This document shows positions 2,988-62,385 of a stretch of 64,000 nucleotides of DNA, piece after piece. The notes under the pieces were generated by a model. The model did not search any database, was not told the DNA's origin, and saw only the letters and a program-made list of their open reading frames with translations. Position 1 is the first letter of the stretch; every line of letters starts with the position of its first letter. A program made the translations under genes and the position numbers. Location: the NCBI GenBank assembly GCA_963726985.1, contig CAVSEF010000001.1, positions 9,855-73,854 on the forward strand, read 5' to 3'. The stretch comes from an uncultured Solirubrobacterales bacterium. Its GTDB lineage: Bacteria; Actinomycetota; Thermoleophilia; Solirubrobacterales; Solirubrobacteraceae.

Positions 2988-3794
2988 CTAGGTCTCGGAC
3001 GAGTCGAGGCGGTACATGCCGAACCCCAGCACCAGCCCCACCACTGCGCCCGTGACGCCCGCCAGCCAGCTTGCCTCGGGGCGCGCGTATGGCATCGCCA
3101 GCAACAGCGCGGCGATCGCCGCGACACCGAGTAGATCCCCCTCGTAGTAGTTGCCCGCCCGCGCGTCCTTGAGGTCGGGGACCGCCCAGGCGGCTAGCAG
3201 CCCGAGCGCCGCGCCGTTGCCGCCGCTCACGAACGGCTGCGCGTAGACGGCGCTCGCCACCAGCGCCCCCGTCGCTCCCGCACCGAAGAACACCACGAGC
3301 GCCACAACCGGGCCTCGGCGGCGCTCCAGCAGCCACCCGAAGATCGCGACGGCGAGCAGCGTGACGAACGCATACAGCCCGTTCACGTAGGCGAACTGGG
3401 TGCTGAAGAGCTTCCACCAGGCGCCGTTCAGAGGGCCGATGATCATCAGCTTGCCGATGTCCACATAGCCTCCGCGCAACACGACCCAACCCCCGCAACC
3501 GAGCGCCACGAGCGCGATCGTCGCGTAGGGCAGCGAGTCGACCCGCAGGCTCGTCGCGCGAGCGGGGCGGCTGTGCGAGCGCGCCGGCAGCGCTCCAGAC
3601 GTGGACCGCCTGGAGCGGCCAAAGCCAGGCAGGCGCAGGCGTCGCGAGCGCCGCGAGGAGCCATCCTTCTCGCGCGGCAGATCCGGTGCGCGACGGCGCA
3701 AGCGATGACCGCAGTAAGGACACTCGGTGATGTACGGGCTGACCTCCGATCCGCACTGCTTACAGACCACGAACAGATCGGGAGGAGAGGACAT
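2988..3794 (-). CDS. rhomboid-family membrane protein with an N-terminal zinc ribbon; the catalytic Ser/His appear substituted
   Basis: The N-terminus has CKQCGSEVSPYITECPYCGH. It has rhomboid-like TM topology, but the GxSG position reads GGNG and the TM6 His position reads SWLAG. Confidence 0.8.
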   Translation of the reverse strand: MSSPPDLFVVCKQCGSEVSPYITECPYCGHRLRRRAPDLPREKDGSSRRSRRLRLPGFGRSRRSTSGALPARSHSRPARATSLRVDSLPYATIALVALGCGGWVVLRGGYVDIGKLMIIGPLNGAWWKLFSTQFAYVNGLYAFVTLLAVAIFGWLLERRRGPVVALVVFFGAGATGALVASAVYAQPFVSGGNGAALGLLAAWAVPDLKDARAGNYYEGDLLGVAAIAALLLAMPYARPEASWLAGVTGAVVGLVLGFGMYRLDSSET

Positions 3795-3901
3795 CGTCGG
3801 TCCATTCTAAGTGCCTGTCCAGCCTGGCCCTCGGGTACCCGTTCGAGGGGGTTCCGCGTGGCTGCCCCACCCGCGCGACACGCCTTTGAAATACTCAAGC
3901 G

Positions 3902-5055: not shown

Positions 5056-5291
5056 GAACCTTCGCCCAGTTCCTGCAGGGCCTCTCCGACCTCAGCGCGG
5101 AGGTCCTGCTCGGTCGCGCCCTCGCCGTCTTTGCGGTGGATCTCCAGGTAGATCTCCGTGCGGAACACCGGGACCTCCTGCGGGGCCTGGATACCGATGC
5201 GCACCTTGTCGCCCATCACGGACAGGACCGACACCTCGACATCGTCCCCGATCATGATGCTCTGATTGGACTTGCGCGTCAGGACCAGCAT
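5037..5291 (-). CDS. csrA: carbon storage regulator CsrA
   Basis: MLVLTRKSNQSIMIGDDVEVSVLSVMGDKVRIGIQAPQEVPVFRTEIY is a near-canonical CsrA core. The product is 84 aa with an acidic tail. Confidence 0.9.
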   Translation of the reverse strand: MLVLTRKSNQSIMIGDDVEVSVLSVMGDKVRIGIQAPQEVPVFRTEIYLEIHRKDGEGATEQDLRAEVGEALQELGEGSQPSST

Positions 5292-17273: not shown

Positions 17274-17403
17274 CCCGAGGATGCTAGCTCGATTCACCGC
17301 CGAACAGAGACTGGGGAGCAGGGAATCGAGAGCGTGGGGGGAGCAGGCTCCCCCCACGAACCCCCTACCTGGGACACCGACACAACTGGGACCAACACGA
17401 CGA

Positions 17404-17474
17404 CTGGGGAGCAGGGATTCGAACCCCGATTCTCAGGACCAAAACCTGATGTCCTGCCCTTGGACGACTCCCCA
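17404..17474 (-). tRNA. tRNA-Gln (anticodon TTG)
   Basis: A hand-folded cloverleaf fits: acceptor TGGGGAG/CTCCCCA, D-arm GTCC..GGAC, anticodon stem TCAGG/CCTGA with loop TTTTGGT, and T-arm CGGGG TTCGAAT CCCTG. No CCA is encoded. Confidence 0.85.
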
Positions 17475-28432: not shown

Positions 28433-29641
28433 ATGCCGAGCTTCCAGGCGACCGCCACCGTGCTCGGCCTGCTGCTGATCGCCGGCGCGCTGCTCTCCGG
28501 CCTGGCGCAGCGTTCGTTTCTGTCGCTCACCGCGCTGTTCGTGCTCGCCGGCTTCCTGCTCGGCCCCGGCGGCTTCGGCTGGATCGACTTCCGCGCCAAA
28601 TCGGGCTTCGTCGAGGATCTCGCGTTCGCCGCGCTGATCGTGATCCTGTTCCGCGACGGTCTCGAGGTCGAGGATGAGATGCTCAAAAGCGAGTGGCATC
28701 TGCCCGCGCGCAAGCTCGTGCTGGCGATGCCGATCACCGCCGCGATCGCCGCCGTCGCCGCGCACGCGCTGATCGGCTTCTCCTGGACCGAGTCCTTCCT
28801 CGTCGGCGCGCTGCTCTCGCCGACCGACCCCGTGCTGACTTCGAGCATCGTCACCAACCTCCGCGTACCCCGCGTGATCCGCCATTCGCTGAACCTCGAG
28901 TCCGGGCTCAACGACGGCCTCGCGCTGCCGGCCGTGCTCGCCCTGCTGGCAGCGCTGAGCGTCGGCGCAGGGAGCTTTCACTGGGGACGCTTCGTGCTCC
29001 AGGACCTCGGCCTCGGCCTGCTCTACGGGCTCGCCTGCGGCTGGCTGGCGTCGCTTTTGATGCCACAACCGCACGCGCGGGAGCACGAGATCCCGGCCCA
29101 CCAGAAGTCGCTGTTCGCGCTCGGCGTCGCCTTCACCACCTACGGGCTGACCGTGCTCACACCGAAAGGCAACGGTTTCATCGCGGTGTTCGTCGCCGCG
29201 ATCGTGCTCGGCATCCGCCGCCCCGACCTGCGCCTGCACTTCGAGCAGCGCGCCGACGAGCTGGTGGAGATCGTCAAGCTCGGCATCTTCTTCGTGTTCG
29301 GCTCGCTGCTCACGCTGAACGCGCTCACGCGCGAGGGCTGGCCGGCGGTCGTGTTCCTCGCCGTCGTCTTCCTCGTGGCACGCCCGCTCGCGGTGTGGGT
29401 CGCCCTGCTGGGAACTTCGACCGACCGCGCCACCCGCCTGTTCATGGGCTGGTTCGGGCCGAAGGGCGTCGCCACGATGACCTTCGCGCTGCTCGTCCTC
29501 GACCAGAACATCTCAAACGGCACGCGCATCTTCGACCTGACCGCGCTCGTCGTCTTCTGCTCGATCATCGCCCACGGCCTGTCCGACACCCCCGGCGCGA
29601 ACTGGATCGCCGCCCGCGAGGGTGACCAGAAAGACGGTTGA
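28433..29641 (+). CDS. cation:proton antiporter (Na+/H+ exchanger family)
   Basis: About 11 TM segments, with ...LLSPTDPVL...NLESGLNDGLALP... The start is ATG 28433, in frame. Confidence 0.9.
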   Translation: MPSFQATATVLGLLLIAGALLSGLAQRSFLSLTALFVLAGFLLGPGGFGWIDFRAKSGFVEDLAFAALIVILFRDGLEVEDEMLKSEWHLPARKLVLAMPITAAIAAVAAHALIGFSWTESFLVGALLSPTDPVLTSSIVTNLRVPRVIRHSLNLESGLNDGLALPAVLALLAALSVGAGSFHWGRFVLQDLGLGLLYGLACGWLASLLMPQPHAREHEIPAHQKSLFALGVAFTTYGLTVLTPKGNGFIAVFVAAIVLGIRRPDLRLHFEQRADELVEIVKLGIFFVFGSLLTLNALTREGWPAVVFLAVVFLVARPLAVWVALLGTSTDRATRLFMGWFGPKGVATMTFALLVLDQNISNGTRIFDLTALVVFCSIIAHGLSDTPGANWIAAREGDQKDG

Positions 29642-29646
29642 GAGGA

Positions 29647-29787
29647 GGCAGTGCCGCATGCGGCACTGCCCGGGGGCGTGCATGCACGCCCCCGCCGTCG
29701 GCGCATGCGCCGACGGATGACGCGCCGCATGCGGCGCGTCTCGGGGCGGCACATGTGCCGCCCCGCGGGCGGTGCATGCACCGCCCG
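29647..29787. repeat. array of six abutting perfect palindromes (20-24 nt each) centred on CATG
   Basis: GGCAGTGCCGCATGCGGCACTGCC / CGGGGGCGTGCATGCACGCCCCCG / CCGTCGGCGCATGCGCCGACGG / GACGCGCCGCATGCGGCGCGTC / CGGGGCGGCACATGTGCCGCCCCG / CGGGCGGTGCATGCACCGCCCG. The sequence was verified against the translation of ORF 29638..29928. Confidence 0.9.
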
Positions 29788-29800
29788 AACCACACAACAA

Positions 29801-30052
29801 CTACGACGTGTGCAGCGCCGCCTGCTCCTGCGCTGAGGGAAATGCCCAGGCCGCGCGCGAGCGGCGCTCCTGGCGGAACACGAACCGCAGCTGCTGTGGC
29901 GGGCGCAGCTCGGCCTCGCTGGGTCTGAACGTCGAGCACGGCTCGGCGAGATCCAGAGCGCAGAGCATGTTCGTGTGAAAGAAGCAGTCCTCGCAGGTGA
30001 CCTTCCGCGCCGGCCGTTTCCCCGGCCGCTTGCTCTGCTGCTTCGCTGGCAC
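29801..30052 (-). CDS. small basic Cys-containing protein (hypothetical)
   Basis: The GTG is preceded by GGGGAG. The 83-aa product reads VPAKQQSKRPGKRPARKVTCEDCFFHTNMLCALDLAEPCSTFRP... I do not recognise a family. Confidence 0.4.
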   Translation of the reverse strand: MPAKQQSKRPGKRPARKVTCEDCFFHTNMLCALDLAEPCSTFRPSEAELRPPQQLRFVFRQERRSRAAWAFPSAQEQAALHTS

Positions 30053-31945: not shown

Positions 31946-32070
31946 GCAGACCGTCGGTGTGGGCGATGTTTCCGGCATGGCCCGCAGACCGTCGGTGTGG
32001 GCGATGTTTCCGGCACAGCCCGCAGACCGTCGGTGTGGGCGATGTTTCCGGCACGGCCCGCAGACCGTCG
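31946..32070. repeat. 38-bp tandem repeat, 3.3 copies (GCAGACCGTCGGTGTGGGCGATGTTTCCGGCAYRGCCC)
   Basis: Copies start at 31946, 31984, 32022 and 32060 (partial). They differ only at 2 positions near the unit end. The array is intergenic and starts 3 nt after the SRPBCC stop. Confidence 0.9.
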
Positions 32071-32236
32071 CCGACCGGCCTCCCGCCCCGCTTCCATACG
32101 CTCCGGCGACCGGAGACGGGTGTTTTGCATATCTCCCACCGTCACTGTTTTCCAGGAAAGATCGTGTAAGGTGATACTGGAGAGCTATGAATAATGTGAC
32201 TGAGCTCACATTTACACTAATGAAGAGGATCCAACC

Positions 32237-32851
32237 GTGACTGACTTTCTTGACGAGAAGCGCCGAGAGATCACCGACCGTCTGAAGGAGCTTGCTCCGC
32301 TGGTCGACGAGTATCGTCGCCTGGAGGCTGCCGCTTCGGCACTCGACGGAGTGGGCGCATCGTCGACCTCAACCACCCCCGCCGCCGCCACGGCCGCGAC
32401 CACCACTCGCCGTCGTGGACCGGGGCGCCCGCGTGGCTCCGGCCGCAAAGCGGCCGCGGCCGTTGCTGCCACCGTCGCCGCCCCCACGGGGGGGCGCAAA
32501 AAAGTAGGCCGTCCTCCCGGGTCAGGCAAAAAAGTCGGCCGTCCCGCCGGATCGGGCAAAAAAGTAGGCCGCCCCGCCGGCACAGGCAAAAAAGTCGGCC
32601 GTCCCGCCGGCAAAGTGGGTCGTCCGGCCGGGAAAGTAGGACGCCCCGCGGGGAAAGTCGGACGGCGCAAAGGCAGCGGCACGCGTGCCGCTCAGGCCCT
32701 TTCGTTCGTCCAGGGTCAGCCCGGTATCACGATTCCCGAGCTGGCCGCGAAGATGGGCATCAAGCAGAACTACCTCTACCGCGTCCTTCCCAGCCTCGAG
32801 CAGGAAGGCAAACTGGAGAAGAAAGGCCGCGGCTGGCACCCGAAGTCCTAG
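32237..32851 (+). CDS. DNA-binding protein with ~7 AT-hook-like GRP repeats and a C-terminal winged-helix-like domain
   Basis: RRRGPGRPRGSGRK, then KKVGRP(P/A)GSG x4, then KVGRPAG x3. The C-terminus reads ITIPELAAKMGIKQNYLYRVLPSLEQEGKLEKKGRGW. The ~75 nt upstream are unusually AT-rich for this window. Confidence 0.75.
   Translation: MTDFLDEKRREITDRLKELAPLVDEYRRLEAAASALDGVGASSTSTTPAAATAATTTRRRGPGRPRGSGRKAAAAVAATVAAPTGGRKKVGRPPGSGKKVGRPAGSGKKVGRPAGTGKKVGRPAGKVGRPAGKVGRPAGKVGRRKGSGTRAAQALSFVQGQPGITIPELAAKMGIKQNYLYRVLPSLEQEGKLEKKGRGWHPKS
32498..32665 (+). repeat. in-frame tandem repeats (30-bp x4, then 21-bp x3) encoding the GRP motifs
   Basis: The GGCAAAAAAGT(A/C)GGCCG(T/C)CC.GCCGG units are visible in the DNA and are in frame within 32237..32851. 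Confidence 0.85.
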
Positions 32852-33011
32852 TCTCGGAGCCCCTGGCGGCGTCCTTACCGATCGGAGATCGACGGGATCT
32901 CCGATCGGCCAGCACACGCGAAGCACGCCACGCTGGGTGGGCGGGCCTTCGATTCCTAGCCAGGAATGACGATCCGTCGGACTGACATTCGTCGGATGGC
33001 ATATTGATATG

Positions 33012-33041
33012 GAAAGGGCGCGGCTTATGCCGCGCCCTTTC
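33012..33041 (+). terminator. GC-rich hairpin followed by a T-containing tract (candidate intrinsic terminator)
   Basis: GAAAGGGCGCGGC-TTAT-GCCGCGCCCTTTC forms a 13-bp stem, followed by CTTTGCC. It lies 160 nt downstream of 32237..32851. Confidence 0.55.
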
Positions 33042-33194
33042 CTTTGCCGTCAGCCCGCTGGAGCGACTGCGAGAAGTCCCGAGCTAAAGTGGCGGGACCT
33101 GGTTGTTGACCTCAGTTCGTGGTAGACATGGTCCTGGTCCCTGCAGACAGCCGGGAAGAAAAACTCCGCAGTACGCGGGCGACTCAGCGAAGTC

Positions 33195-33482
33195 TCAGCC
33201 TGAGGTGGCAGCGGAAGATGATCGTGCGTCCTGGACCGTGATCACGACAATTAGGTCGTCATGCTCATCGTAGAGATAGACGAGCAGGAGCCATCGCCAC
33301 GGACCGATCAGGAGGCGCAGAGGTTGCCATCTCCCCTCCAACTGACGACCGACCAACGGAAATTGCTCCAAGATGCCCAGCGAACGCTTTACGCGAGCAC
33401 GCGTGTCGACGGGAAGACTGTGAGTGACGATCATCCGATCGAGATCCTCGATCGCAGCGAGGCTCAACTCGACGGGTGTCAC
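33195..33482 (-). CDS. type II toxin, RelE/ParE superfamily
   Basis: 95 aa. ...AIEDLDRMIVTH...VKRSLGILEQFPLVGRQLEG...LRLLIGPWRWLLLVYLYDEHDDLIVVITVQD is a typical ParE/RelE layout. It lies directly downstream of an RHH gene. Confidence 0.8.
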   Translation of the reverse strand: MTPVELSLAAIEDLDRMIVTHSLPVDTRARVKRSLGILEQFPLVGRQLEGRWQPLRLLIGPWRWLLLVYLYDEHDDLIVVITVQDARSSSAATSG

Positions 33483-33501
33483 GCTCTGGGTCTCATGAGA
33501 A

Positions 33502-33759
33502 TTACAGCACGTCGAGAGGGACGGTCTTGCCTTCAGCGACCTGCTTCAACCCCAGTTGGGCGCGCTCATAGGCACCCGGGATACCGTCGAGCAGCGCGGT
33601 GATCGTACGAGGGTCAGGGTCGGCCTCGTCAAGCGCCATCGACAGCAGCGAGCGAGCGAGCGTTCCCTCCTGCACATGCGTGCGCTCGGCCAACCGTGCC
33701 AGCCGAGCTGCATGCTCGGAGTCGAGCGTGACGTTCAGACGGTGGGTCGCTGCCTTCAC
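33502..33759 (-). CDS. ribbon-helix-helix (CopG-like) antitoxin
   Basis: The N-terminal beta-strand plus two helices read HRLNVTLDSEHAARLARLAERTHVQEGTLARSLL. 85 aa, 19 nt upstream of the toxin. Confidence 0.78.
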   Translation of the reverse strand: MKAATHRLNVTLDSEHAARLARLAERTHVQEGTLARSLLSMALDEADPDPRTITALLDGIPGAYERAQLGLKQVAEGKTVPLDVL

Positions 33760-33923
33760 ACCCGTAGCGTACTACACGTCCCGGCACGCCGCGTGCATGT
33801 ATAAGCCGGTGCCGACCCCGTCGACGTACGCGCTGCCTCAGCCAGCGTGGCGGCATTGGGCTGCGATCATCCGCGCGGCCGTGGATGTTTGATTTGGACG
33901 CACAAAATTAGTAAACTGGACAT

Positions 33924-34493
33924 ATGAGTTTTGCGCTTCAGGAGCTGGCGGACAGCCTGCAGGTCAACGAGCGAACCCTGCGTAGAGCATGGGCGCTGGG
34001 GACGCTGCGCGGAACGAGGAGGACCCCCTACCGGTTGGAGTTGCCGGTGGCGGAGCGAATCTACCTACGTCGTCACTGGCCAACTCTCAGCTGCATTCGC
34101 CGCGTGCTGCGCACCGAGCCGGGCGTATCGATGGCTGTCGTGTTCGGCTCGGTCGCACGTGGCGATGACCACGTGGAGTCAGACGTCGATTTGGTCGTCG
34201 CGCTGCGTGAGCCTGGATTGCACCATCGGGTTGCCTTGGCCAAGCGTCTGCGCAAACGCACGGGCCTCATTCTGGAGGTAGTGGCGCTGGAGGATGCCCT
34301 GCGGCGTCCATCGCTGATGATCGAGGTCCTGCGCGACGGACGCGTGCTGGTCGATCGTGACGGGCGCTGGCCGGAACTCCAGGCCCAGATGAAGCGGTTT
34401 GAGATCCGAACACAACGGGATCGCGAGCTCTTGGCCGAACGAGCCTGTGAGGCAACCGCCGCATTTGCCGAAAGGGCCGGGGCGTCCACGTGA
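33924..34493 (+). CDS. nucleotidyltransferase (MNT-type) with an N-terminal HTH-like extension
   Basis: VFGSVARGDDHVESDVDLVV matches the GSxxRG...DxD minimal NTase signature. The promoter region is AT-rich, and there is a GTGA overlap with the next gene. Confidence 0.78.
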   Translation: MSFALQELADSLQVNERTLRRAWALGTLRGTRRTPYRLELPVAERIYLRRHWPTLSCIRRVLRTEPGVSMAVVFGSVARGDDHVESDVDLVVALREPGLHHRVALAKRLRKRTGLILEVVALEDALRRPSLMIEVLRDGRVLVDRDGRWPELQAQMKRFEIRTQRDRELLAERACEATAAFAERAGAST

Positions 34494-35014
34494 ATCCGCA
34501 TCGACCGCAAAGGAGCTCCGCGCAGTTGCGCATGAGCTACGACGAGACGCTCGACGCTCTTCGTCGCCGCTTCGAGCAGCTGGAGTGGGCGGTCGCTCAA
34601 TTTCAGCCCGACCTCGACGAACGGGCCTTCTCGACCGCGTGGTACTCCGATGATCCGTCCGAGCGCACCAGAGCCGACAGCGTCTTATCCAGCTTCGAGA
34701 AGACCTACATGCTGCTCGTGGACCTAATCGCGCTCAGCGTCAAGATCGCCGGACGGTTTGGTGCTCTGAGCGTAGATCAGGAAACCTCTCCGGTTGAGGT
34801 GCTGCGCGAGCTGCGGATCATCTCCCAGTCTGCCCAGGATTCACTCGATGTCCAGCGCGAGGTGCGCAACTTGAGCCAGCACGTCTATGTCGAGCTGACT
34901 GTCTCCGACCTCCGCGATGCGGTCATGCAGCAGATCGGGAGCACGCCCCGCATGATCGAGAATGTCACTTCTTGGGTCGATGGGTTGACCAAGGAGGCGG
35001 GCGAGGGGCGGTGA
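34490..35014 (+). CDS. HEPN-like (HepT/DUF86-like) partner of the NTase
   Basis: It contains VRNLSQHVY (an R-x4-H HEPN motif in the RNxxxHxY context) and is translationally coupled to the MNT gene. Confidence 0.6.
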   Translation: MNPHRPQRSSAQLRMSYDETLDALRRRFEQLEWAVAQFQPDLDERAFSTAWYSDDPSERTRADSVLSSFEKTYMLLVDLIALSVKIAGRFGALSVDQETSPVEVLRELRIISQSAQDSLDVQREVRNLSQHVYVELTVSDLRDAVMQQIGSTPRMIENVTSWVDGLTKEAGEGR

Positions 35015-35268
35015 GCCGGCGCTGCGGGCACCATCGCCGCGTCAGTGCCCGACATCGAGACTCGCGCACCAGCGAGATCTCGGAGGCGCTGCGCAGGGAA
35101 TCAGCTTGCACAGTCCAACCGTCGAGATGTATGTCTCAACCAAGGTGGAAAAACGAAGGAAGAACCGGGGCACCGATTATCACGGGCGGTCAGGTCATCG
35201 CGGTGACACTCAAAGACGGACATTATGAAGTTGGTATTCTGTTCTGCCGAGAGACGATCTTGGCTTGG

Positions 35269-35754
35269 TCACCCAGACACCGCCACAAACTTGCCGCCGA
35301 AGCCCGGCTGCACAACCATCCGATATTGCATCGGGTCGTGACCGTACTTGCTGTCGATTGTCAGCCGCGTGAAATGAGCCCCTTGGCGAATAAACCCGCG
35401 GATTGTGGCTCCGTACTGTAGCTCCGGCCCCTCCGCGCAGTTGATCTTGCAGGTATCGACCCACAGAACGCCGACGCCACGAGCTTCGGATTGTGTCCAC
35501 GACAGCCACTTGATGGGAGCAGGGTGCGCGAATGACCCTACGCCCGTCACGGCGTACCCATCCGTTGGCGTGAGGTCTATCGAGGACGGCCGGACGACGA
35601 AGCTGCCCATCCAGTCGCTGAGGATGCCCGGCAAGCGAGTTGCGCCGCTCGCACTAACGGGCGAGGCCCAGCCAGCAACGATCGCGAGCAACCCGGCCGT
35701 CAAGAGCGAGACGAGCATCGAGAATTTCCGCGCGCTGGGGTTGATACTGTGCAT
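35269..35754 (-). CDS. exported hypothetical protein
   Basis: MHSINPSARKFSMLVSLLTAGLLAIVAGWASPVSASG is signal-peptide-like. 161 aa. Confidence 0.6.
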   Translation of the reverse strand: MHSINPSARKFSMLVSLLTAGLLAIVAGWASPVSASGATRLPGILSDWMGSFVVRPSSIDLTPTDGYAVTGVGSFAHPAPIKWLSWTQSEARGVGVLWVDTCKINCAEGPELQYGATIRGFIRQGAHFTRLTIDSKYGHDPMQYRMVVQPGFGGKFVAVSG

Positions 35755-35984
35755 GAGTTCTCCGATCATAGACACTTGGAATTGGGGACTCAATACCCAC
35801 TCGGTCACGCAGAGTCCCACAGAGCCTGTGTTCCACGAGTCCCTTCAATCGAGAACTCGCACACCACGCGCTTCGGCACGCGGGGGTTGAAGCCCGAACA
35901 GATCCTGTAGCTAGCCATATCGTCGCTCCACGGCGGACACACATGCTTTCCGCTTGTCAGCGTTCTTGATGTGCTTGCAAACAG

Positions 35985-36227
35985 TTATCGCACTGGCTCG
36001 CTGACGCTGGCGGGCAAGCTGAAGTTCGTGCTGGCGAAACAATATGTGACGCCGACCTGAGACGCCGCAGCACTCACGATCGCCTGCCCTTGCGAGGCAC
36101 CTGCCATTGCCGGCGTGACCAGCCCGATACCAAGGACCGACGCACACAGCAGCGTAAGCAGAAGCACGAAGACTGGGGGCCGGCGCGGCGACCTCACAGT
36201 CACGCCCAGAATCGCGCCCACAATCAT
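35985..36227 (-). CDS. small exported protein (hypothetical; the N-terminus faintly resembles NlpC/P60-type proteins)
   Basis: It has an ATGA overlap with the stop of 36224..37447. The sequence has a signal-like stretch (VFVLLLTLLCASVLGIGLVTPAMA) then QAIVSAAASQVGVTY... Confidence 0.4.
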   Translation of the reverse strand: MIVGAILGVTVRSPRRPPVFVLLLTLLCASVLGIGLVTPAMAGASQGQAIVSAAASQVGVTYCFASTNFSLPASVSEPVR

Positions 36228-37447
36228 CGCCCGTGCCCACGGCCGGCGGACACCAGAACCAGCACCTTCGAGCGAGGGGATAGCCGGGTGTGCGGACGCG
36301 AGGCGAGGCCGATCACTCGACCCCGCCGGACGTGACGGCTGTGAAGGTGGCTGATGCTCACCGCGCAGTCGGCTGCCGCCAGCTGGCGCTCGACACGGGC
36401 AAGCGTGCTGCCGCTCTCGACGACGGGAACGACACAGGGGCGTCCCGCGGACTCCACGATGTTCACGGCGGCTCCGGCGGATAGTTTGGTTCCCGGTGCC
36501 GGATTGAGGCTCACGACCCCGCCGCGCGCCACTTTGGTGCTTGCCACTGAACTGATGCTGCCGACCGTACAGTCGGCCGCGCGGATCTTCTGCTCGACGC
36601 TTGCGAGGCTGGCGCCGGATGCGAGCTGCGGCACTACACACGGCGGCGGTGGCGATACAACCGTGAACATCTCCGGCTGAGGGCCGGCGATCACCGGGGT
36701 TTCGTTGCCCGAACCGGCCAGCCACAGACAGATTAGATACTGGCCGGCTTTCGACTGGGTGGTCTTGGCCTGCGTCGAGAACGAGCCGTTTACGCTCTGC
36801 CCTTCGATCAGGTTTGTGCCGAAGTCCGCGTTGTAGGTTGACGCACACGGCGCTCCTCCCGCCGGCCGGACCTTCGCGTAGACGTTCTCGGGTGCTTCGC
36901 TGTCGCCGATCACAGTGACGGTCGCCTGCCGCCCGGGTTCGGGCGCGAGCGGATTCACGGTCGCGGTGATCGTGCCGTTCGGCGATCGGAAGGTAATCGT
37001 CTGCGTGATTGGCACAGTGATTTCATTCGCCCCTCCTTTGGGAGGTAGCCAGATGCAAAACATGAACGTTCCCGACGTGCGCCACGTCATCACTGCCTGA
37101 ACATGAATGGTCCCTTCCACAGCCGCTTCCCAGAATGGACCGGGGAAATCCTCGCTCCCATCCAAAAATGAGCCCGTGTCTTCATTAGCGTTCGGGGCGC
37201 ATGGAGCGCCGCCAGGACCACGGTACTTGACGAATACATGGTTAGGAGCTTCCGCGTTCCCATTGAGGGTAAAGACACGCGGCAGGCCGGCGGCAGGGTC
37301 GGATTCACCGGCCGTGTTGGTCACGCTGATCGAAGCGCTGTCCGCAAACGCTGATCCCGCGCAGATGAATACGGCAGCAAGCGCGAGCGAGCTCACCAAG
37401 ATGCAGCTGCGGCCGAGCCGCAAGCTTCTTCCTCTTCGATCAATCAT
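36224..37447 (-). CDS. exported protein with two internal ~110-aa repeats and two C-terminal PASTA-like domains
   Basis: The signal reads LVSSLALAAVFICAGSAFA. The pattern ...GGAPCA...Y/FLICLWL is repeated. The C-terminus has CVVPQLASGASLASVEQKIRAADCTVG...G.KLSAGAAVNIV and a second copy. Confidence 0.72.
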   Translation of the reverse strand: MIDRRGRSLRLGRSCILVSSLALAAVFICAGSAFADSASISVTNTAGESDPAAGLPRVFTLNGNAEAPNHVFVKYRGPGGAPCAPNANEDTGSFLDGSEDFPGPFWEAAVEGTIHVQAVMTWRTSGTFMFCIWLPPKGGANEITVPITQTITFRSPNGTITATVNPLAPEPGRQATVTVIGDSEAPENVYAKVRPAGGAPCASTYNADFGTNLIEGQSVNGSFSTQAKTTQSKAGQYLICLWLAGSGNETPVIAGPQPEMFTVVSPPPPCVVPQLASGASLASVEQKIRAADCTVGSISSVASTKVARGGVVSLNPAPGTKLSAGAAVNIVESAGRPCVVPVVESGSTLARVERQLAAADCAVSISHLHSRHVRRGRVIGLASRPHTRLSPRSKVLVLVSAGRGHGR

Positions 37448-37503
37448 CTGAGTCTCCCTTGTAGGTCGTGGTATCGCATCCTGCCCGCAGGCCCTGACTA
37501 TAG

Positions 37504-37534
37504 ATAGCCACCCAAGGTGTCGAGTGACCACACC
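37504..37534 (-). promoter_or_regulatory. island motif copy H (GGTGTGGTCACTCGACACCTTGGGTGGCTAT)
   Basis: The core ACACCTTGGGTGG is present. It lies 57-87 nt upstream of ATG 37447 and points toward that gene. Confidence 0.6.
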
Positions 37535-37572
37535 TGCGCTTTCAGGCCAGTCCCTTCGACGCCCACGGGCAG

Positions 37573-37791
37573 CTACGTAGGTCTCGCCCGCGGCGAGGAT
37601 CTTGTCCTGTTGTGAATCAGGTCGTGGACCTTAACCTTGCCGGCTACAGCCGTCATACGGGACTGGTCGCATTCGTCGATGGTCAGCCAGTGGGTGCCCT
37701 CGACGGTCGTGCTGACGTAACGGCCGTTGGTGCCCCAGCTGCCGCCGTTGTCCGAGACCCAGAGGTGGCGGGAGAATTTCTTCGACATCAT
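37573..37791 (-). pseudogene. 5'-truncated, frameshifted remnant of the shared C-terminal module
   Basis: RHLWVSDNGGSWGTNGRYVSTTVEGTHWLTIDECDQS...GKVKVHDLIH aligns with 39642..~39900. After IHN the homologous reading (QDKILAAGETYVAAR) continues in another frame. Confidence 0.6.
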
Positions 37792-37792
37792 G

Positions 37793-38299
37793 TCAACCGA
37801 CGTATTCCAGGTCGACTTCTCTCACGCCTTCGGCCCTGGTGTAGAACAGTATCGACGTGACAACAGGCTTCCCTTCGAACGTTCCCTTGATCTGACAGTC
37901 CAGAGACTTCTTGGGAATCCACGGCCCAGGCCCGCACTTGAGCTTTGGATATGCCTTGCGAAACTTGGCGTAAGACGAGAAGGCTCCAATACCTTTGCTG
38001 GTCTTCTGTAGCTTGGAGTCCGTCCACATCGCATCCACTCGGAGTTCACGATCGAAACCGACTACGCCGTCGAAGCCAGCGGGATACTTCCAGGCGATGC
38101 GACCTTCAAAGTCGGGCGGTTCCTTGAACCCTGGCGGCCCAGTCACCGCTTCGACTTCCGCCTGCGTCATTCCCAGCTTTACGCCGCCAATGCTCTGCCC
38201 CACGATGATATTGGCGCTGGCGGTCGACGACAGCAGAACACCAATAGCCCCCATTGCCGTTAGCGCTACCCCGACGGCAACTACTAGACGTTGTCTCAT
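37793..38299 (-). CDS. exported hypothetical protein
   Basis: The ATG is preceded by GGGAGAAG. The signal reads MRQRLVVAVGVALTAMGAIGVLLSSTASA. 168 aa. Confidence 0.65.
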   Translation of the reverse strand: MRQRLVVAVGVALTAMGAIGVLLSSTASANIIVGQSIGGVKLGMTQAEVEAVTGPPGFKEPPDFEGRIAWKYPAGFDGVVGFDRELRVDAMWTDSKLQKTSKGIGAFSSYAKFRKAYPKLKCGPGPWIPKKSLDCQIKGTFEGKPVVTSILFYTRAEGVREVDLEYVG

Positions 38300-38509
38300 G
38301 CTTCTCCCTGTTTGTGTTTTGCCGCTAGCCGTGACCGTTCCTGCGTCCCGTAGCTGAGTGAGAAGGCTGATTGGGACGCCATGGCAGAGCACGCGAGGCC
38401 CATGTGACCGCTTGAGCGGGAGTAGTTAAGTTAGCGTCGACCGGCCCACAGGCGAAAAGAGAGGCCACGGCGAGCATAAGCGCAGCGTAAGCGACCCGAG
38501 CGCGAAGGC

Positions 38510-39538
38510 TCATGGTTGCCATACAGGCGAAGTTGGGACGTCGGATTGCACGTACTCGGGCCCGGTGCCGTTTTTGACGATCTCGTGGGCCTCTTGACCT
38601 TGCGCGTTCGTCACGAAGAGCCCCTGTAGGCAGGCCACGGCATAGAGCTGCCCGTGTGGAGAGTTCGCGGCCTCGAGCGGCCAGTAGCTTGAGCTGCCGC
38701 TGCGCAGGACGCGGTGCTTGCCCGTGGTCGGGCTGTAGAGACAGATGTCTGGGTGTTGGTCACCTGGCGCCGGGCACTCGTAGCTCACTTCTCCGCTGAT
38801 CGTGAAGTGGACGGGTTCGTCGTAGAACCTCGGAAGGAAGGTAGAGCGTGGTTCGGTGCCGCTCGTGGTCTCGACCGTCGTCAGCGTGTGGAAGCCGGTG
38901 CTCTCTTTGATCTGGTGCGTAAAGACCATGAGACTCCCGTTGCTGGAGTATTCGGCTGAGCCCGGTACGGGCAGCTTTTGGGAGACGCCGGTGCTGACGT
39001 TGACTTCCTCCAACGGCGTGAAGTCTTCTTCGAAGGGTTCCGGTGGTTCTTCCAAGAGCAGTTTCTGCGACCACATGTTCGGGTTCAGCGAGTACACGAT
39101 GTTGCCGCTCGAAGTGAAATTCGGGTTGTAGCCGAGGCCGAGGCGTCTACGGTCGCGGCCATTCGCATCGGCCACGTAAACCGCACGCGTGTTTTCCTCC
39201 ATATCCCCCTCGTCGCCATGGACGATGTTTGTCTCCATGTCGTACGTGAGGAGCTTGCCGTTAGGTGAGAAATGGGGGTGTCTCGGTACGTCCCAGACCA
39301 CGCAGCCGGCGCCACAGGTGGCGGTCCGCCACGGGATCAACTCGTGTAGATCAGTGCCGTTTGCTCGGATCTCGTAGATGCCCGTCTTGACCGAGTAGGC
39401 GATCTCGCCGGCCTGGAAGCGCGCGCTCATTGTGGCGCCCGACGTGAAGCCGGCGGCCGAGGCGCTCGCGGCAACCAGCAACAGCCACGCAACGGCCATC
39501 ACGGTCGTGCAGTAGATCCCAAAAATGGATCGCCTCAT
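38510..39538 (-). CDS. exported beta-propeller-like protein (TolB/PD40-like repeats)
   Basis: The signal reads MRRSIFGIYCTTVMAVAWLLLVAASASA. It has FSPNGKLLTY / YSSNGSLMVF-type repeat signatures. Confidence 0.68.
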   Translation of the reverse strand: MRRSIFGIYCTTVMAVAWLLLVAASASAAGFTSGATMSARFQAGEIAYSVKTGIYEIRANGTDLHELIPWRTATCGAGCVVWDVPRHPHFSPNGKLLTYDMETNIVHGDEGDMEENTRAVYVADANGRDRRRLGLGYNPNFTSSGNIVYSLNPNMWSQKLLLEEPPEPFEEDFTPLEEVNVSTGVSQKLPVPGSAEYSSNGSLMVFTHQIKESTGFHTLTTVETTSGTEPRSTFLPRFYDEPVHFTISGEVSYECPAPGDQHPDICLYSPTTGKHRVLRSGSSSYWPLEAANSPHGQLYAVACLQGLFVTNAQGQEAHEIVKNGTGPEYVQSDVPTSPVWQP

Positions 39539-39613
39539 GGATGCCTCTGTGCGGTCATTCGAATATCCTCTTCTAGTGGCTTGCGGAGCATTATCTCGCC
39601 TGGGAGAACGCTC

Positions 39614-39637
39614 GGCCACCCATCCAAGGTGTTAATC
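39614..39637 (-). promoter_or_regulatory. island motif copy I, short form (GATTAACACCTTGGATGGGTGGCC)
   Basis: It starts 4 nt after the stop of the module gene 39642..40542 and lies ~80 nt upstream of ATG 39538. Confidence 0.55.
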
Positions 39638-39641
39638 GCGC

Positions 39642-40542
39642 TCACCCCGACGGCTGACGGGTGGCTATGTACGTCTGGCCCGCGCTGATGACCTTGGTCT
39701 TGTCGTTGACCAGATCGTGCACCTTCACCCTGCCGGCCGCGACCTCTACCTCGGAGCGATTGCATTTATCGAGCGTCAGCCAGCGCGTGCCCTCGACCGT
39801 GGTGCTCACGTAACGGCCGTTGGTGCCCCAACTGCCGCCGCTCTCGGAAACCCAGAGGTGGCGTAACTTGGCGCCCGCGCGATGCCCGGCGCCTTTCGCG
39901 GGCGACTTGGCGTGAGGGTGGCCCAGCGGCAGGCTGCGCGGACATCCGGTGAGCGGCAGAGACAACGTTAAACGCGCCAGTGCATGAGCTCCGCTGGTCT
40001 GACGGAACGTGAAGATCCCCTCGTACACTTCCGCGCTTGCTGTCGGTCCGGCATGCGCGGTCGCCACGGTGATCAGCACGCGGCCGTCGGTGGCGTCGAC
40101 TTCGCTCCCGTTGGGGATGCTGGCCGAACCGGAGAGCGATACGAACGTGTTCGTGCCCTTGAGGCGGATTCTCACGGTCCCGGCGATCACCTTCGCGATC
40201 CCCCTGCCGGCCGAGGATCGGAGGTGGTGGGGGCTCTTCGACCGAGGGCGAGACAGGCTGCGCCGTCGCAGCCTGCACCGTGGGTGGCAGGGGTGGAGGT
40301 TGATATACGGCGACGCGATTCGTCGCGGGACGCACTGGACGGACAGCCTTGTTGGAAACCTTCGGCGCAAGGCGTGGTGGAGCGGACAGAACTACAACCA
40401 CCGGCGGCGGGGGAGGCGAGGATGCCTGTGTTTTCGTGAGCGACGCCAGCGCTACGCCGGACACCATCAGAACGACGGCGCACGCGATGATCGCCGCGTG
40501 AATTTGGCGCCTGCGCGCCGAGCGTCTATTTCTCGGTTTCAC
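39642..40542 (-). pseudogene. TM-anchored Pro-rich protein carrying the shared C-terminal module, split by a single frameshift at a G5 run
   Basis: The N-terminal frame (39766..40542) reads MKPRNRR...TM...PPPPPILGRQG. The module frame (39642..40370) reads IAKVIAGTVRIRLKGTNTFVSL... The frames meet at CAGGGGGAT (plus-strand C5 at 40200-40204). Removing one G gives LGRQGIAKVIAGTV, which aligns with the paralogs. Confidence 0.65.
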
Positions 40543-60273: not shown

Positions 60274-62385
60274 ATGCGCCAAGCGTTGTGGCAGAGACGT
60301 AAGGCCCTACTGCTCCTCGCGGTCGCGCTGATCTCCGCCGGACTCGGCAGCCTGGCCTACAACAGCCACCTCCTGCGCCGTCCCGAGCAGCAGACGATCG
60401 ACGCGCGCTTTCAGATCCGGGGCACCGATCGTCACCGGGCCACGGGTGTCGTTCTGGTGGACATCGACGCCACGACCTTCAACTATTTCCGAAACCACAA
60501 CCGGCCCGCGCAGTGGCCGTTTCCGCGTCGCTACCACGCTCGCGTGATCGAAGAGCTCCACCGTGCGGGCGCCAAGGTGATCGCCTTCGACGTCCAGTTC
60601 ACCGAGCCCACCGACCCCGCCGATGACAACGCGCTGATCGAAGCGGTCGGACACGCACACAACATGGTGCTGAGCACGACCGAAGTCGGCCCGCACGGCA
60701 CCACCGACGTGCTGGGAGGCGAAGCGGTTCTGCGCCGGGTGGATGCCCGCGCCGCCAACACGAGCGTGATACCCGACAGCGACGGGGTCATCCGCAACAC
60801 GCAGTACTCGATCGATGGCCTGAAGACCTTCGGCGTGGCGGTGGCCGAAGCGGACACCGGCCGCGCGGTGCCGCCGTCGCTGTTCGGCGGCGTAAAAAAG
60901 CCGGTGCCGATCGACTACGCCGGGCCGCCCGGCACGTTTCCCTCGATCTCCTACTCGCGCGTCTACGACGGCCGGTTCCCAGCCGGCATGTTCGCCGGCA
61001 AGATCGTGATCGTCGGAGCGTCGGCGCCGACGCTCCAGGATCTCCACCAGACACCGATGTCCGGCTCCTCGCCGATGGCAGGTGAGGAAATCCTCGCCAA
61101 CAAGGTGGCCACGGTCCTGGCCGGCATCCCGCTGCGCAACCCGTCGAGCCTGGCTGACGGTGCTGCTGATCGTGCTCCTCGCCCTGCTGGCATGTGTCGC
61201 GGGCATGCGGCTTGGGACGCTCGGCGTGGCCCTGGCGGGTCTCGGCATTCTTGGCCTGTGGACGGTCTGCACCCAGCTCGCGTTCGACTCGGGCACCGTG
61301 CTCGACTACAGCGACCCGGCCGCCTCGCTGATGCTCGCCACAGGCGGAACCGTGCTCGTGGGTCTGTGGGCCGACAGCCGCGAGCGCAGGCGGCTGCGCA
61401 ACCTGTTCGCGGCCGACTCGGCGAGCATCGTCGAGGAGGTCCTGCGCGCCTCCGGGCCCCGCTCGCTAGAGCCCACCGCGATCATCGCCGGCTACAGGAT
61501 CGAGCAGGCGATCGGGCGCGGCGGCATGGGAGTCGTCTACCGTGCCACCCAGCTGGCGCTCGAGCGCCCGGTGGCGATCAAGCTGATCGCGACCGAGCGC
61601 GCGCAGGATCCGGTGTTTCGCGGCCGCTTCAAGCTCGAGTCGCGGCTGGCGGCCTCGATCGAGCACTCAACGTCATCCCGGTGTATGAGGCCGGCGAGGA
61701 CGACGGCCTGCTGTTCATCGCGATGCGCCTGGTCGAAGGGACCGACCTGGCGCAGCTGCTCGAGCGCGTCGGGGCGCTCGAGCCCTCAAGGGCGGCGCGA
61801 CTGATCGGCCAGCTCGCGGGAGCGCTGGACGCCGCCCACGCCCACGGCCTCGTGCACAGAGACGTAAAGCCCGCCAACGTGCTACTCACACTCGATGAGC
61901 CCGAGCATCTCTATCTCACCGACTTCGGCGTCGCCAAGCACATCGGCGCGGGCGAGGGCGTGACCCAGGCCGGCCAGTGGGTCGGCACCCTGGATTATCT
62001 CGCGCCCGAGCAGATCCGTGGAGAGGCGGCCGGCGCCGGCGCCGACATCTATGCGCTCGCCGGTCTCCTGTACCACTGCCTGACCGGAGAGGTCCCCTTT
62101 CCGCGGGAGAACGAGGCGGCCAAGCTGTGGGCACACGTCAACGCCCCGCCTCCCGCGCCCAGCCGATTGCGGCCCGACCTTCCGAAGGCGATCGACGGGG
62201 TGATCGCCCGCGGGATGGCCAAGGATCCGGCCGCACGCTTTCACAGCGCCGCCGAGCTGGCCCACGCCTGCGCGCAGGCGCTGGGCCTCGCCACAGACGA
62301 GGTTGGACCGCTCCGGCCTGACGGCCCCGGCGATGGTTCCGGCCACGCCGAGCGGCCGTCGGCGCCGACGGTCGTCTCGGAATGA
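60274..62385 (+). CDS. CHASE2 sensor-domain Ser/Thr protein kinase; the central ~170 codons are out of the homologous frame
   Basis: The N-terminus is CHASE2-like (TM, ...VLVDIDATTF...VIAFDVQFTEP...GKIVIVGASAP). The C-terminus reads HRDVKPANVLL...DFGVAK...GTLDYLAPE. The TM helices, the GRGGMGVVY loop and the AIK lysine are readable only in the frame of ORF 61082..61804. Confidence 0.78.
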   Translation: MRQALWQRRKALLLLAVALISAGLGSLAYNSHLLRRPEQQTIDARFQIRGTDRHRATGVVLVDIDATTFNYFRNHNRPAQWPFPRRYHARVIEELHRAGAKVIAFDVQFTEPTDPADDNALIEAVGHAHNMVLSTTEVGPHGTTDVLGGEAVLRRVDARAANTSVIPDSDGVIRNTQYSIDGLKTFGVAVAEADTGRAVPPSLFGGVKKPVPIDYAGPPGTFPSISYSRVYDGRFPAGMFAGKIVIVGASAPTLQDLHQTPMSGSSPMAGEEILANKVATVLAGIPLRNPSSLADGAADRAPRPAGMCRGHAAWDARRGPGGSRHSWPVDGLHPARVRLGHRARLQRPGRLADARHRRNRARGSVGRQPRAQAAAQPVRGRLGEHRRGGPARLRAPLARAHRDHRRLQDRAGDRARRHGSRLPCHPAGARAPGGDQADRDRARAGSGVSRPLQARVAAGGLDRALNVIPVYEAGEDDGLLFIAMRLVEGTDLAQLLERVGALEPSRAARLIGQLAGALDAAHAHGLVHRDVKPANVLLTLDEPEHLYLTDFGVAKHIGAGEGVTQAGQWVGTLDYLAPEQIRGEAAGAGADIYALAGLLYHCLTGEVPFPRENEAAKLWAHVNAPPPAPSRLRPDLPKAIDGVIARGMAKDPAARFHSAAELAHACAQALGLATDEVGPLRPDGPGDGSGHAERPSAPTVVSE

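Follow-up and report, generated by a model that had tools for sequence, protein, structure and literature searches.

Six perfect palindromes lie between two convergent genes

We analyzed a 64,000-nt stretch of a contig (CAVSEF010000001.1, positions 9,855 to 73,854) from an uncultured Solirubrobacterales bacterium (GCA_963726985.1), hereafter the window, and describe an array of palindromes at positions 29647 to 29787 that lies between two convergent genes. An exhaustive scan for perfect even palindromes returned six abutting units in this interval, every one centered on CATG (GCATGC, n = 5; ACATGT, n = 1), exactly at the coordinates and with the arm sequences that the initial annotation had given them. 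The position between the stop codons of an antiporter gene (29641) and of a small minus-strand gene (29801) was likewise correct, and both flanking open reading frames (ORFs) are real genes. From left to right the array consists of unit 1 (29647 to 29670, 24 bp, arms GGCAGTGCCGCA and TGCGGCACTGCC), unit 2 (29671 to 29694, 24 bp, arms CGGGGGCGTGCA and TGCACGCCCCCG), unit 3 (29695 to 29716, 22 bp, arms CCGTCGGCGCA and TGCGCCGACGG), unit 4 (29719 to 29740, 22 bp, arms GACGCGCCGCA and TGCGGCGCGTC), unit 5 (29742 to 29765, 24 bp, arms CGGGGCGGCACA and TGTGCCGCCCCG), which has the ACATGT center, and unit 6 (29766 to 29787, 22 bp, arms CGGGCGGTGCA and TGCACCGCCCG). The arms measure 12, 12, 11, 11, 12 and 11 nt and the gaps between units 0, 0, 2, 1 and 0 nt. 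A purine-rich 5-nt spacer, GAGGA (29642 to 29646), runs from the antiporter stop to unit 1, and a 13-nt spacer without a T-run, AACCACACAACAA (29788 to 29800), follows unit 6.

The 64-kb window has seven perfect palindromes whose arms reach 11 nt or more, six of them in the array and the seventh at 61015; in 100 first-order Markov simulations the number averaged 0.1 and was at most 1. The RNA of either strand folds into six consecutive 9–10-bp hairpins with CAUG loops (−128.9 and −130.2 kcal/mol for the two strands; z = −8.2 and −7.5), and none of 200 shuffles folded as well. Outside the array the window contains a further 11 perfect hairpins with a stem of 9 bp or more; they do not occur in tandem, and CATG is the loop of none of them. 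At gathering thresholds Rfam reported a single tRNA in the whole window and nothing at the array, and at permissive E-values the array gave sub-threshold noise only (e.g. RsmW, 23.6 bits against a 52-bit cut-off). A BLAST search of the array against plasmids returned no similarity, and a promoter and terminator consensus scan placed no terminator-like site on it.

The upstream neighbor, a plus-strand NhaP-type cation/proton antiporter gene (28433 to 29641; PF00999, Na_H_Exchanger, E = 2.9e-42), ends with a TGA stop codon at 29639 to 29641, and its start is taken from a 402-aa record (P0001, 100% identity). Its relatives are annotated as NhaP-type antiporters in metagenome-assembled genomes (MAGs) of the Solirubrobacteraceae, and homologues of the antiporter assign the window to that family (order Solirubrobacterales, class Thermoleophilia). 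The downstream neighbor is a small conserved gene of about 81 aa on the minus strand (29801 to a putative start at 30046), whose stop, read as CTA on the plus strand, occupies 29801 to 29803. It shares 81% identity over 73 aa with an 81-aa gene at the same position in the orthologous locus L002, and its G+C content at third codon positions (GC3) is 0.88 over 29801 to 30046; the mechanical ORF extends to 30190. The product has no Pfam match. It contains conserved cysteines (CEDCFF...C...C).

The array belongs to a dispersed family of the Solirubrobacterales

The initial annotation had proposed a search of relatives for further CATG-centered palindrome clusters. We searched one genome per species across 185,579 species with a pattern of three YGCATGCR cores 22–26 nt apart. 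There were at least 120 matches, and all family counts of arrays, units, flanks and contexts given below are among the matches listed. Solirubrobacterales-type MAGs supply about 110 of these 120, and the loci contain 114 arrays with 441 perfect units. Arrays comprise 2–8 abutting units whose centers are mostly 24 nt apart (n = 210), less often 23 (n = 70) or 25 nt (n = 37); arms are 12 nt long in 319 units and 11 nt in 88, and the gap between units is 0 nt at 191 and 1 nt at 67 of 327 junctions. A core of 12 bp (SSYGCA-TGCRSS) is conserved, while about six outer arm positions carry little information, and 324 distinct sequences occur among 439 12-nt arms. Centers of the ACATGT type, as in unit 5, make up about 8% of the units. 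Comparison of 800-nt flanks by tblastx placed the 114 arrays in at least 81 unrelated genomic contexts.

Among the matches listed, the palindromic layout is specific to this lineage. The nine in other phyla proved to be direct repeats or coincidental and contain no palindromes, and a negative control of viral contigs gave 28 matches to the pattern, none of them palindromic. In about 920 kb outside the arrays we counted 2,293 CATG sites, of which seven had at least 8/10 flanking positions paired; five of these belong to arrays overlooked by the strict definition and two are weak 8/10 matches. At most two isolated units were found in about 920 kb, and single units are essentially absent. Several genomes carry at least 3–4 arrays each. 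An assembly artefact was rejected because the same arrays recur in independent short- and long-read sequencing projects (L166 and L184; L162, L163 and L198). A fixed, ordered triplet of unit classes was rejected as well (same-class neighbors at 60/221 junctions against 64.5 expected, with no dominant order), as was a general reading of the arrays as protein-coding repeats, since about one third of the junctions have 23- or 25-nt spacing; strict 24-nt spacing is found in intragenic copies only. The family is a lineage-specific (Solirubrobacterales, Thermoleophilia), dispersed palindromic repeat that occurs obligately in arrays and combines a conserved core with free but perfectly paired arms. 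It is apparently undescribed: nothing comes near an Rfam threshold and full-text searches of the literature turned up no description of it, so that the earlier statement that no element of this layout had been described holds so far.

The two ends of an array differ. At one end the array typically follows purine-rich sequence that closes in ...GGAA, which itself often stands right behind a stop codon; at the other end AACAGCA or AACAAC comes next in many arrays. The window array has weak versions of both, GAGGA on the left, where orthologous loci have GGAAG before unit 1, and AACCACACAACAA on the right. An orientation bias of the two ends toward gene stops was rejected, as both face stops equally often. 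A conserved tail, ATCAGC-TTTT-N(3-6)-AAGCATG, occurs 13 times in about 1.3 Mb of loci, always within 60 nt of an array unit. At locus L065, 28-nt tails stand at both array ends in inverted orientation, like terminal inverted repeats; most arrays, including that of the window, have one tail or none. The orthologous locus L002 has a tail-like GACGACATCAGCCCGATAAGGCACATG after its third unit.

Pairing is conserved and arm sequence is not

Beyond the window we collected 82 orthologous antiporter/small-gene loci (80 metagenome and 2 genome loci). The first three units of 13 array-bearing loci were aligned and scored as a three-hairpin structure. Of 386 cells 99.5% are paired, and two-sided changes are seen at 22/30 pairs (68 cells), with a single one-sided change, a U-G. 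None of 500 shuffles did as well, and sliding the structure by 1–3 columns left at most six such pairs. Two-sided changes affect 9/10 pairs of helix 2 and 8/10 pairs of helix 3. Unit 1 takes several forms (GACAGGGCC, GGGAGCGCC, GGAAGGGCC, GGCATGGCC and others), always with compensation in the opposite arm, and unit 3 of L002 (CCGGTCGGCGCA and TGCGCCGACCGG) carries a 1-nt insertion that is present in both arms. Many of the arm changes are transversions (G-C to C-G or U-A), which are impossible via a G-U intermediate.

Imperfection is rare at array edges. We scored 14 flanking units with one mismatch each, of which 13 are distinct, since one counts for both of its neighboring sub-arrays. In 10 of the 14 the mismatch is the central dinucleotide, in the loop, and the stem is perfect; the stem mismatches, in three distinct units, are G/T in all cases. 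With the two-sided covariation, these mostly central mismatches with intact stems point to hairpin or cruciform pairing as the conserved feature, rather than arm sequence, and to the central CATG as common yet dispensable.

The outer arms differ between orthologous arrays by 0.34 differences per site, compared with 0.42 at the four-fold degenerate sites of the adjacent gene, and the two divergences are weakly correlated (r = 0.17). In individual comparisons the array does not track its neighbor gene: between the window and L161 the divergence is 0.34 at four-fold sites and just 0.06 in the outer arms, and between the window and L002 it is 0.27 and 0.18, respectively. Synonymous saturation, lineage-specific constraint, or exchange or conversion of arrays could each account for this.

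Arrays vary in presence and unit number at orthologous loci

The small gene adjoins the antiporter gene in about 65 related Solirubrobacterales loci, so that both genes are found in about 65 of the 82 collected; 13 of these have an array of 2–6 units (14 counting the window). Array-less loci are the majority and include those with the closest antiporters (86–89% identity), and in them the two genes lie directly side by side or overlap, from −10 to about +80 nt apart. Locus L173, where antiporter identity is just 73%, has six units colinear with those of the window: its unit 4 (GACGCGCCACA and TGTGGCGCGTC) is colinear with ours, as is unit 4 of L034, and its unit 5 is identical and in the same position.

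Arrays are polymorphic in presence and in unit number. At L151 a chimeric unit joins the left arm of unit 1 straight to the right arm of the last unit, and L227 has a unit of the same kind (GGCAGGGCCGCA and TGCACCGACCGG). Both chimeras are deletions between the conserved cores of different units and show how arrays are lost; several of the ‘empty’ sites are such deletion scars (L151, L227). Decayed array remnants are present at L162, L163, L198 and L209. Local duplications lie beside the orthologous array at two loci, L174 (about 3240–3330, a tandem duplication of the antiporter 3′ end and half of unit 1) and L175 (about 3727–3830, a tandem duplication of a 45-nt upstream flank).

Unit sharing is 4.6 times more frequent between unrelated loci of one genome than between genomes. 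On two contigs of one MAG, L075 (3678–3819) and L084 (about 5080–5220) have a common 142-bp segment of about 93% identity, consisting of a three-unit array with 52-nt and 20-nt flanks, and the DNA beyond it is unrelated. The 52-nt flank was considered as a general tail and rejected, as it was found in those two loci only.

Arrays stand behind stop codons and, in some genomes, inside genes

Gene contexts of the family loci were read with a GC3 and ORF heuristic. By this measure a gene stop faces 90/114 arrays from no more than 150 nt away (median 17 nt), and 34/114 have stops facing from both sides, as between convergent genes. The 22/114 arrays with no facing stop on either side include apparent divergent-gene and intragenic copies, and several further arrays overlap the last codons of a gene.

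At locus L085 four perfect units lie in frame within a 2,835-nt ORF for leucyl-tRNA synthetase (LeuRS). Loci L231 and L232, from two further genomes, likewise have four perfect units in this part of LeuRS, at the identical position and spaced exactly 24 nt apart; arm sequences differ among the three. An ABC-F ATPase ORF (L113) also contains an in-frame array of perfect units. The LeuRS and ABC-F ORFs that carry arrays remain intact, with high GC3 to either side of the insert. We aligned 120 LeuRS homologues over the region between the RLWRLAAETAER and DDLxLLRKTHWAI motifs. This region is 41 aa long in 47/120 homologues, and in a subclade it reaches 119 aa (up to about 78 extra aa) and is rich in PHAA, AHAP and SAHAPTGT, motifs into which GCATGC units and the conserved tail translate; the tail itself is also found within LeuRS inserts. 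Several long-read MAGs have, on long contigs, LeuRS calls that are divided into two genes or limited to a C-terminal piece (L232, 1–2607; P0124, P0130, P0158, P0178, P0231). A frameshift, an assembly error or a genuine split of the gene upstream of the palindrome insert could account for these calls.

Origin and maintenance of the arrays

We consider it probable, with some reserve, that the 141-bp feature is a copy of a lineage-specific palindrome-array family that is akin to repetitive extragenic palindromes (REPs) and bacterial interspersed mosaic elements (BIMEs), or to miniature transposable elements with inverted repeats (MITEs), and is maintained at the DNA level. On the best reading the family behaves more like REP- or MITE-type selfish DNA than like a purpose-built terminator. 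Such DNA would arise, spread and turn over at the DNA level, and would be tolerated chiefly just past stop codons, with occasional in-frame copies in protein linkers that are variable. The two arms of each unit would correct each other and so keep the palindrome perfect. Near-neutral arm divergence combined with 99.5% pairing, the absence of G-T states and perfection inside coding DNA all suggest such correction, which likely proceeds via a replication template-switch at hairpins; template-switching is known to make quasipalindromes perfect (PMC7202029). The hairpin may also be under selection that adds to arm perfection. Recombination or slippage from core to core between units would expand, contract and delete arrays, and the two chimeric ‘scar’ units of L151 and L227 are direct traces of the deletion step. 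At the window locus the array would be transcribed, if at all, from both convergent genes, giving each transcript six 9–10-bp G+C-rich hairpins with CAUG loops. By analogy with REPs of E. coli, which are partial terminators and mRNA stabilizers (bioRxiv 10.64898/2026.03.23.713779), these hairpins would probably shield the 3′ ends against exonucleases and impede transcription that runs on into the opposing gene.

Several observations weigh against maintenance as REP- or MITE-like DNA. Copy number looks low, with one array in the 64-kb window and essentially no extra arrays in ~900 kb of flanks. Copies within a genome are diverged, not near-identical as in active REPs or MITEs, and the L075/L084 duplicate could be a segmental duplication. 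Within ~4 kb of the 114 arrays no transposase, RAYT (REP-associated tyrosine transposase) or other enzyme was identified, and comparison of filled with empty orthologous sites gave no consistently readable target-site duplication. Watson-Crick-only pairing would be demanded equally by a function on both transcripts, and the colinear six-unit array of L173, at 73% antiporter identity, argues for some selective retention. The gene contexts, in addition, come from the heuristic and not from a gene caller.

More tentatively, the arrays could be the product of an undescribed DNA-level system of the Thermoleophilia that makes, perfects and moves hairpins. Such a system may take the form of a hairpin-loop-specific enzyme that recognizes GCATGC on folded single-stranded DNA, or of an efficient arm-to-arm template-switch or repair process. 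It would keep hundreds of palindromes perfect at near-neutral drift while seeding them past stop codons and inside essential genes.

The dedicated-terminator and duplex-site explanations are weakened by the covariation, the turnover and the in-gene copies. The first of them, which the initial annotation had raised as a bidirectional multi-hairpin terminator or RNA stabilizer, supposes that the array is selected by the host to serve the antiporter and the small gene, and that the family is the strong-terminator style of this lineage; its hairpins would halt or pause RNA polymerase and bar the way to 3′ exonucleases on either transcript. We regard this as unlikely. The six stable hairpins on both strands, the 17-nt median distance past stop codons, the 34 convergent positions and the dual roles of E. 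coli REPs (bioRxiv 10.64898/2026.03.23.713779) are all in keeping with it, as are the Watson-Crick-only pairing (one G-U in 386 cells), which a two-strand function would need, and the retention of six colinear units in L173. Such effects are a plausible local consequence of the array. They are, however, not the reason for the family, because arrays are found in frame in LeuRS and ABC-F, are missing at most orthologous loci (about 50/65, closest relatives included) and have no U-tract. A terminator inside the essential LeuRS gene of three genomes would be harmful, and terminator function cannot explain perfect palindromy within coding DNA. A canonical intrinsic terminator is a G+C-rich hairpin followed at once by a 7–9-nt U-rich tract, and the only actinobacterial RNA polymerase tested requires that tract (PMC3993855). 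A T-run follows the array at only 2/225 flanks of the family. In the window neither strand has one, the plus strand continuing with AACCACACAACAA and the minus strand with TCCTCTCAACCGT, and by its sequence the window array is therefore not a canonical intrinsic terminator. Some arrays lie apparently between divergent genes, according to the heuristic contexts, and other 3′ ends in the window have unrelated single hairpins. The GCATGC core, the conserved tail and the fixed 24-nt period are left unexplained.

A second alternative is an array of binding sites on double-stranded DNA, in which a dimeric, nucleoid, topoisomerase or methyltransferase/restriction protein would read the 12-bp core every 24 bp, possibly with cruciform extrusion. 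E. coli BIMEs bind IHF and gyrase. That precedent, the conserved core SSYGCATGCRSS at a strict 23–25-bp period and the suitability of perfect dyad symmetry for dimeric proteins speak for such sites, and the greater sharing of units within a genome could reflect co-evolution with a protein. We nevertheless give this explanation a low probability. Binding to a duplex core provides no reason for the variable outer arms to covary (22/30 pairs), the units with an altered central dinucleotide (10/14) keep their stems intact, and core sites never occur singly. The related suggestion of a cluster of sites for a restriction-modification or dimeric DNA-binding protein is unsupported, because GCATGC is about as frequent as expected (26 observed against 21.9 expected in the window; 21 against ~22 outside the array, which argues against a restriction-modification target) and duplex sites need no complementary variable arms; CATG, too, is close to expectation (178 observed against 195 expected).

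Equally improbable, finally, is a substrate array of a hairpin-specific enzyme (a RAYT-like HUH nuclease or structure-specific recombinase, as in an Actinomycetota analogue of the REPtron) that would read the GCATGC loop on folded single-stranded DNA and make and move the units: conservation does sit in the loop and stem top while the remaining stem need only pair, HUH enzymes recognize hairpins in this manner (PMC8266576), and the family is dispersed, inserts within coding sequence, has tails like terminal inverted repeats and shares units within genomes, but no candidate gene was found near the 114 arrays, the GTAG hallmark of REPs is absent, within-genome copies are diverged and no cleavage site or target duplication is definable. 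The recurrent ORFs near arrays are housekeeping paralogues (ABC transporter, acyl-CoA dehydrogenase, MFS, SDR, ADH, GreA, ClpP and sigma-factor).

Comparison with known repeats

Of the possibilities raised initially, a REP/BIME-like cluster is the closest. That part of it stands which concerns a dispersed family of one lineage in at least 81 contexts; REPs are defined by flanking GTAG, alternation of REP and inverted REP (iREP), high copy number and a cognate RAYT (PMC8266576), and of these hallmarks GTAG and the alternation are absent from the arrays, copy number is apparently low and no RAYT was seen within ~4 kb. Like REPs and BIMEs, which are short G+C-rich palindromes of 20–50 nt, the window units are 22–24 bp long and fold as 9–10-bp stems. 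Both are dispersed in intergenic DNA, for the most part at the 3′ ends of genes or where two genes converge, frequently form tandem clusters and vary in presence among related strains. Group-3 REPs are also perfect palindromes, and the expected effect on RNA, partial termination and protection from 3′ exonucleases, is the same. The array family differs from REPs in lacking a conserved tetranucleotide, such as GTAG, at its flanks (only 11/225 array flanks have GTAG or CTAC within 8 nt, with four occurrences inside the 441 units). Each unit is its own reverse complement and so has no orientation; there is consequently no REP/iREP alternation, and the 0-nt gaps leave no linkers of the kind present in BIMEs. 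The array family conserves the center or loop where REPs conserve the stem foot, and its arms are hypervariable from unit to unit of the same array, in contrast to the near-identical REP copies of a genome. Units are never single, and their copy number is apparently low against hundreds per genome for REPs. REPs and BIMEs are known from Enterobacteria, Pseudomonas and Stenotrophomonas, where they are mobilized by TnpA_REP/RAYT; the arrays are hosted by Actinomycetota, and no RAYT was seen within ~4 kb of them.

Rickettsia palindromic elements (RPEs) insert in frame in unrelated, even essential, protein genes and add a tolerated peptide (PMC10969869). In its in-frame copies in LeuRS and ABC-F the array family resembles RPEs and intragenic MITEs. 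An RPE, however, is a single element of ~100–150 bp with conserved sequence and encoded peptide, in contrast to arrays of 24-bp units with free arms, and the array copies are mostly extragenic and in a different host phylum. The family works like REP/BIME and RPE elements and is a member of neither.

Similarities to other repeats are more limited. Like MITEs and foldback elements, the arrays are small and non-coding, with the inverted tails at both ends of L065 and the common 142-bp copy of L075 and L084 as further points of likeness; unlike MITEs, most copies have one tail or none, no recognizable target-site duplication and no known parent insertion sequence, and the body is a variable number of units, not a fixed sequence. 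The arrays share with bidirectional intrinsic terminators, and with the tandem or U-tract-less hairpins proposed for actinobacteria, G+C-rich hairpins straight after stop codons that are symmetric between convergent genes. They differ in that the window array has no U-tract, six hairpins in place of one and a conserved loop, and in that the family is also found inside coding sequences. [quoted passage not shown]

If this interpretation is correct, the family is a structurally distinct addition to the bacterial extragenic palindromic repeats (REP/BIME, Correia, RPE, SMAG) and the first that we found for the Thermoleophilia, an abundant yet little-studied group of soil Actinomycetota. It stands out for units that are perfect, for a conserved loop or core in place of a conserved stem foot, for its obligate arrangement in abutting arrays and for its insertion in essential genes. 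Hundreds of units that conserve only symmetry and a 12-bp core while their arms drift near the synonymous rate offer a natural test of how palindromes are kept up, whether by template-switching and hairpin repair or by selection on RNA structure, and the family suits study of how palindromic DNA is tolerated in essential genes such as that for LeuRS. In their carriers the arrays likely shape 3′-end formation and the insulation of convergent genes. They can also mislead gene callers and assemblers, giving spurious ORFs and His-Ala or Ala-Cys repeat ‘proteins’, and their variable unit number could mark strains in soil metagenomes.

Other features of the window

Several short sites depart from expectation in the window. 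GATC is strongly over-represented (583 observed, ~195 expected from base composition), as is CGATCG (102 observed, ~22 expected), and GGTACC, GGATCC and GCTAGC are under-represented. The G+C content of positions 32001 to 40000 is 0.62–0.63, compared with 0.67–0.72 on the flanks, and long perfect hairpins lie at the left edge of this stretch (32878 to 32908 and 33011 to 33042); a horizontally acquired segment may have its boundary here. Next to a minus-strand tRNA gene (17404 to 17474) lies an 11-bp perfect hairpin at 17333 to 17358.

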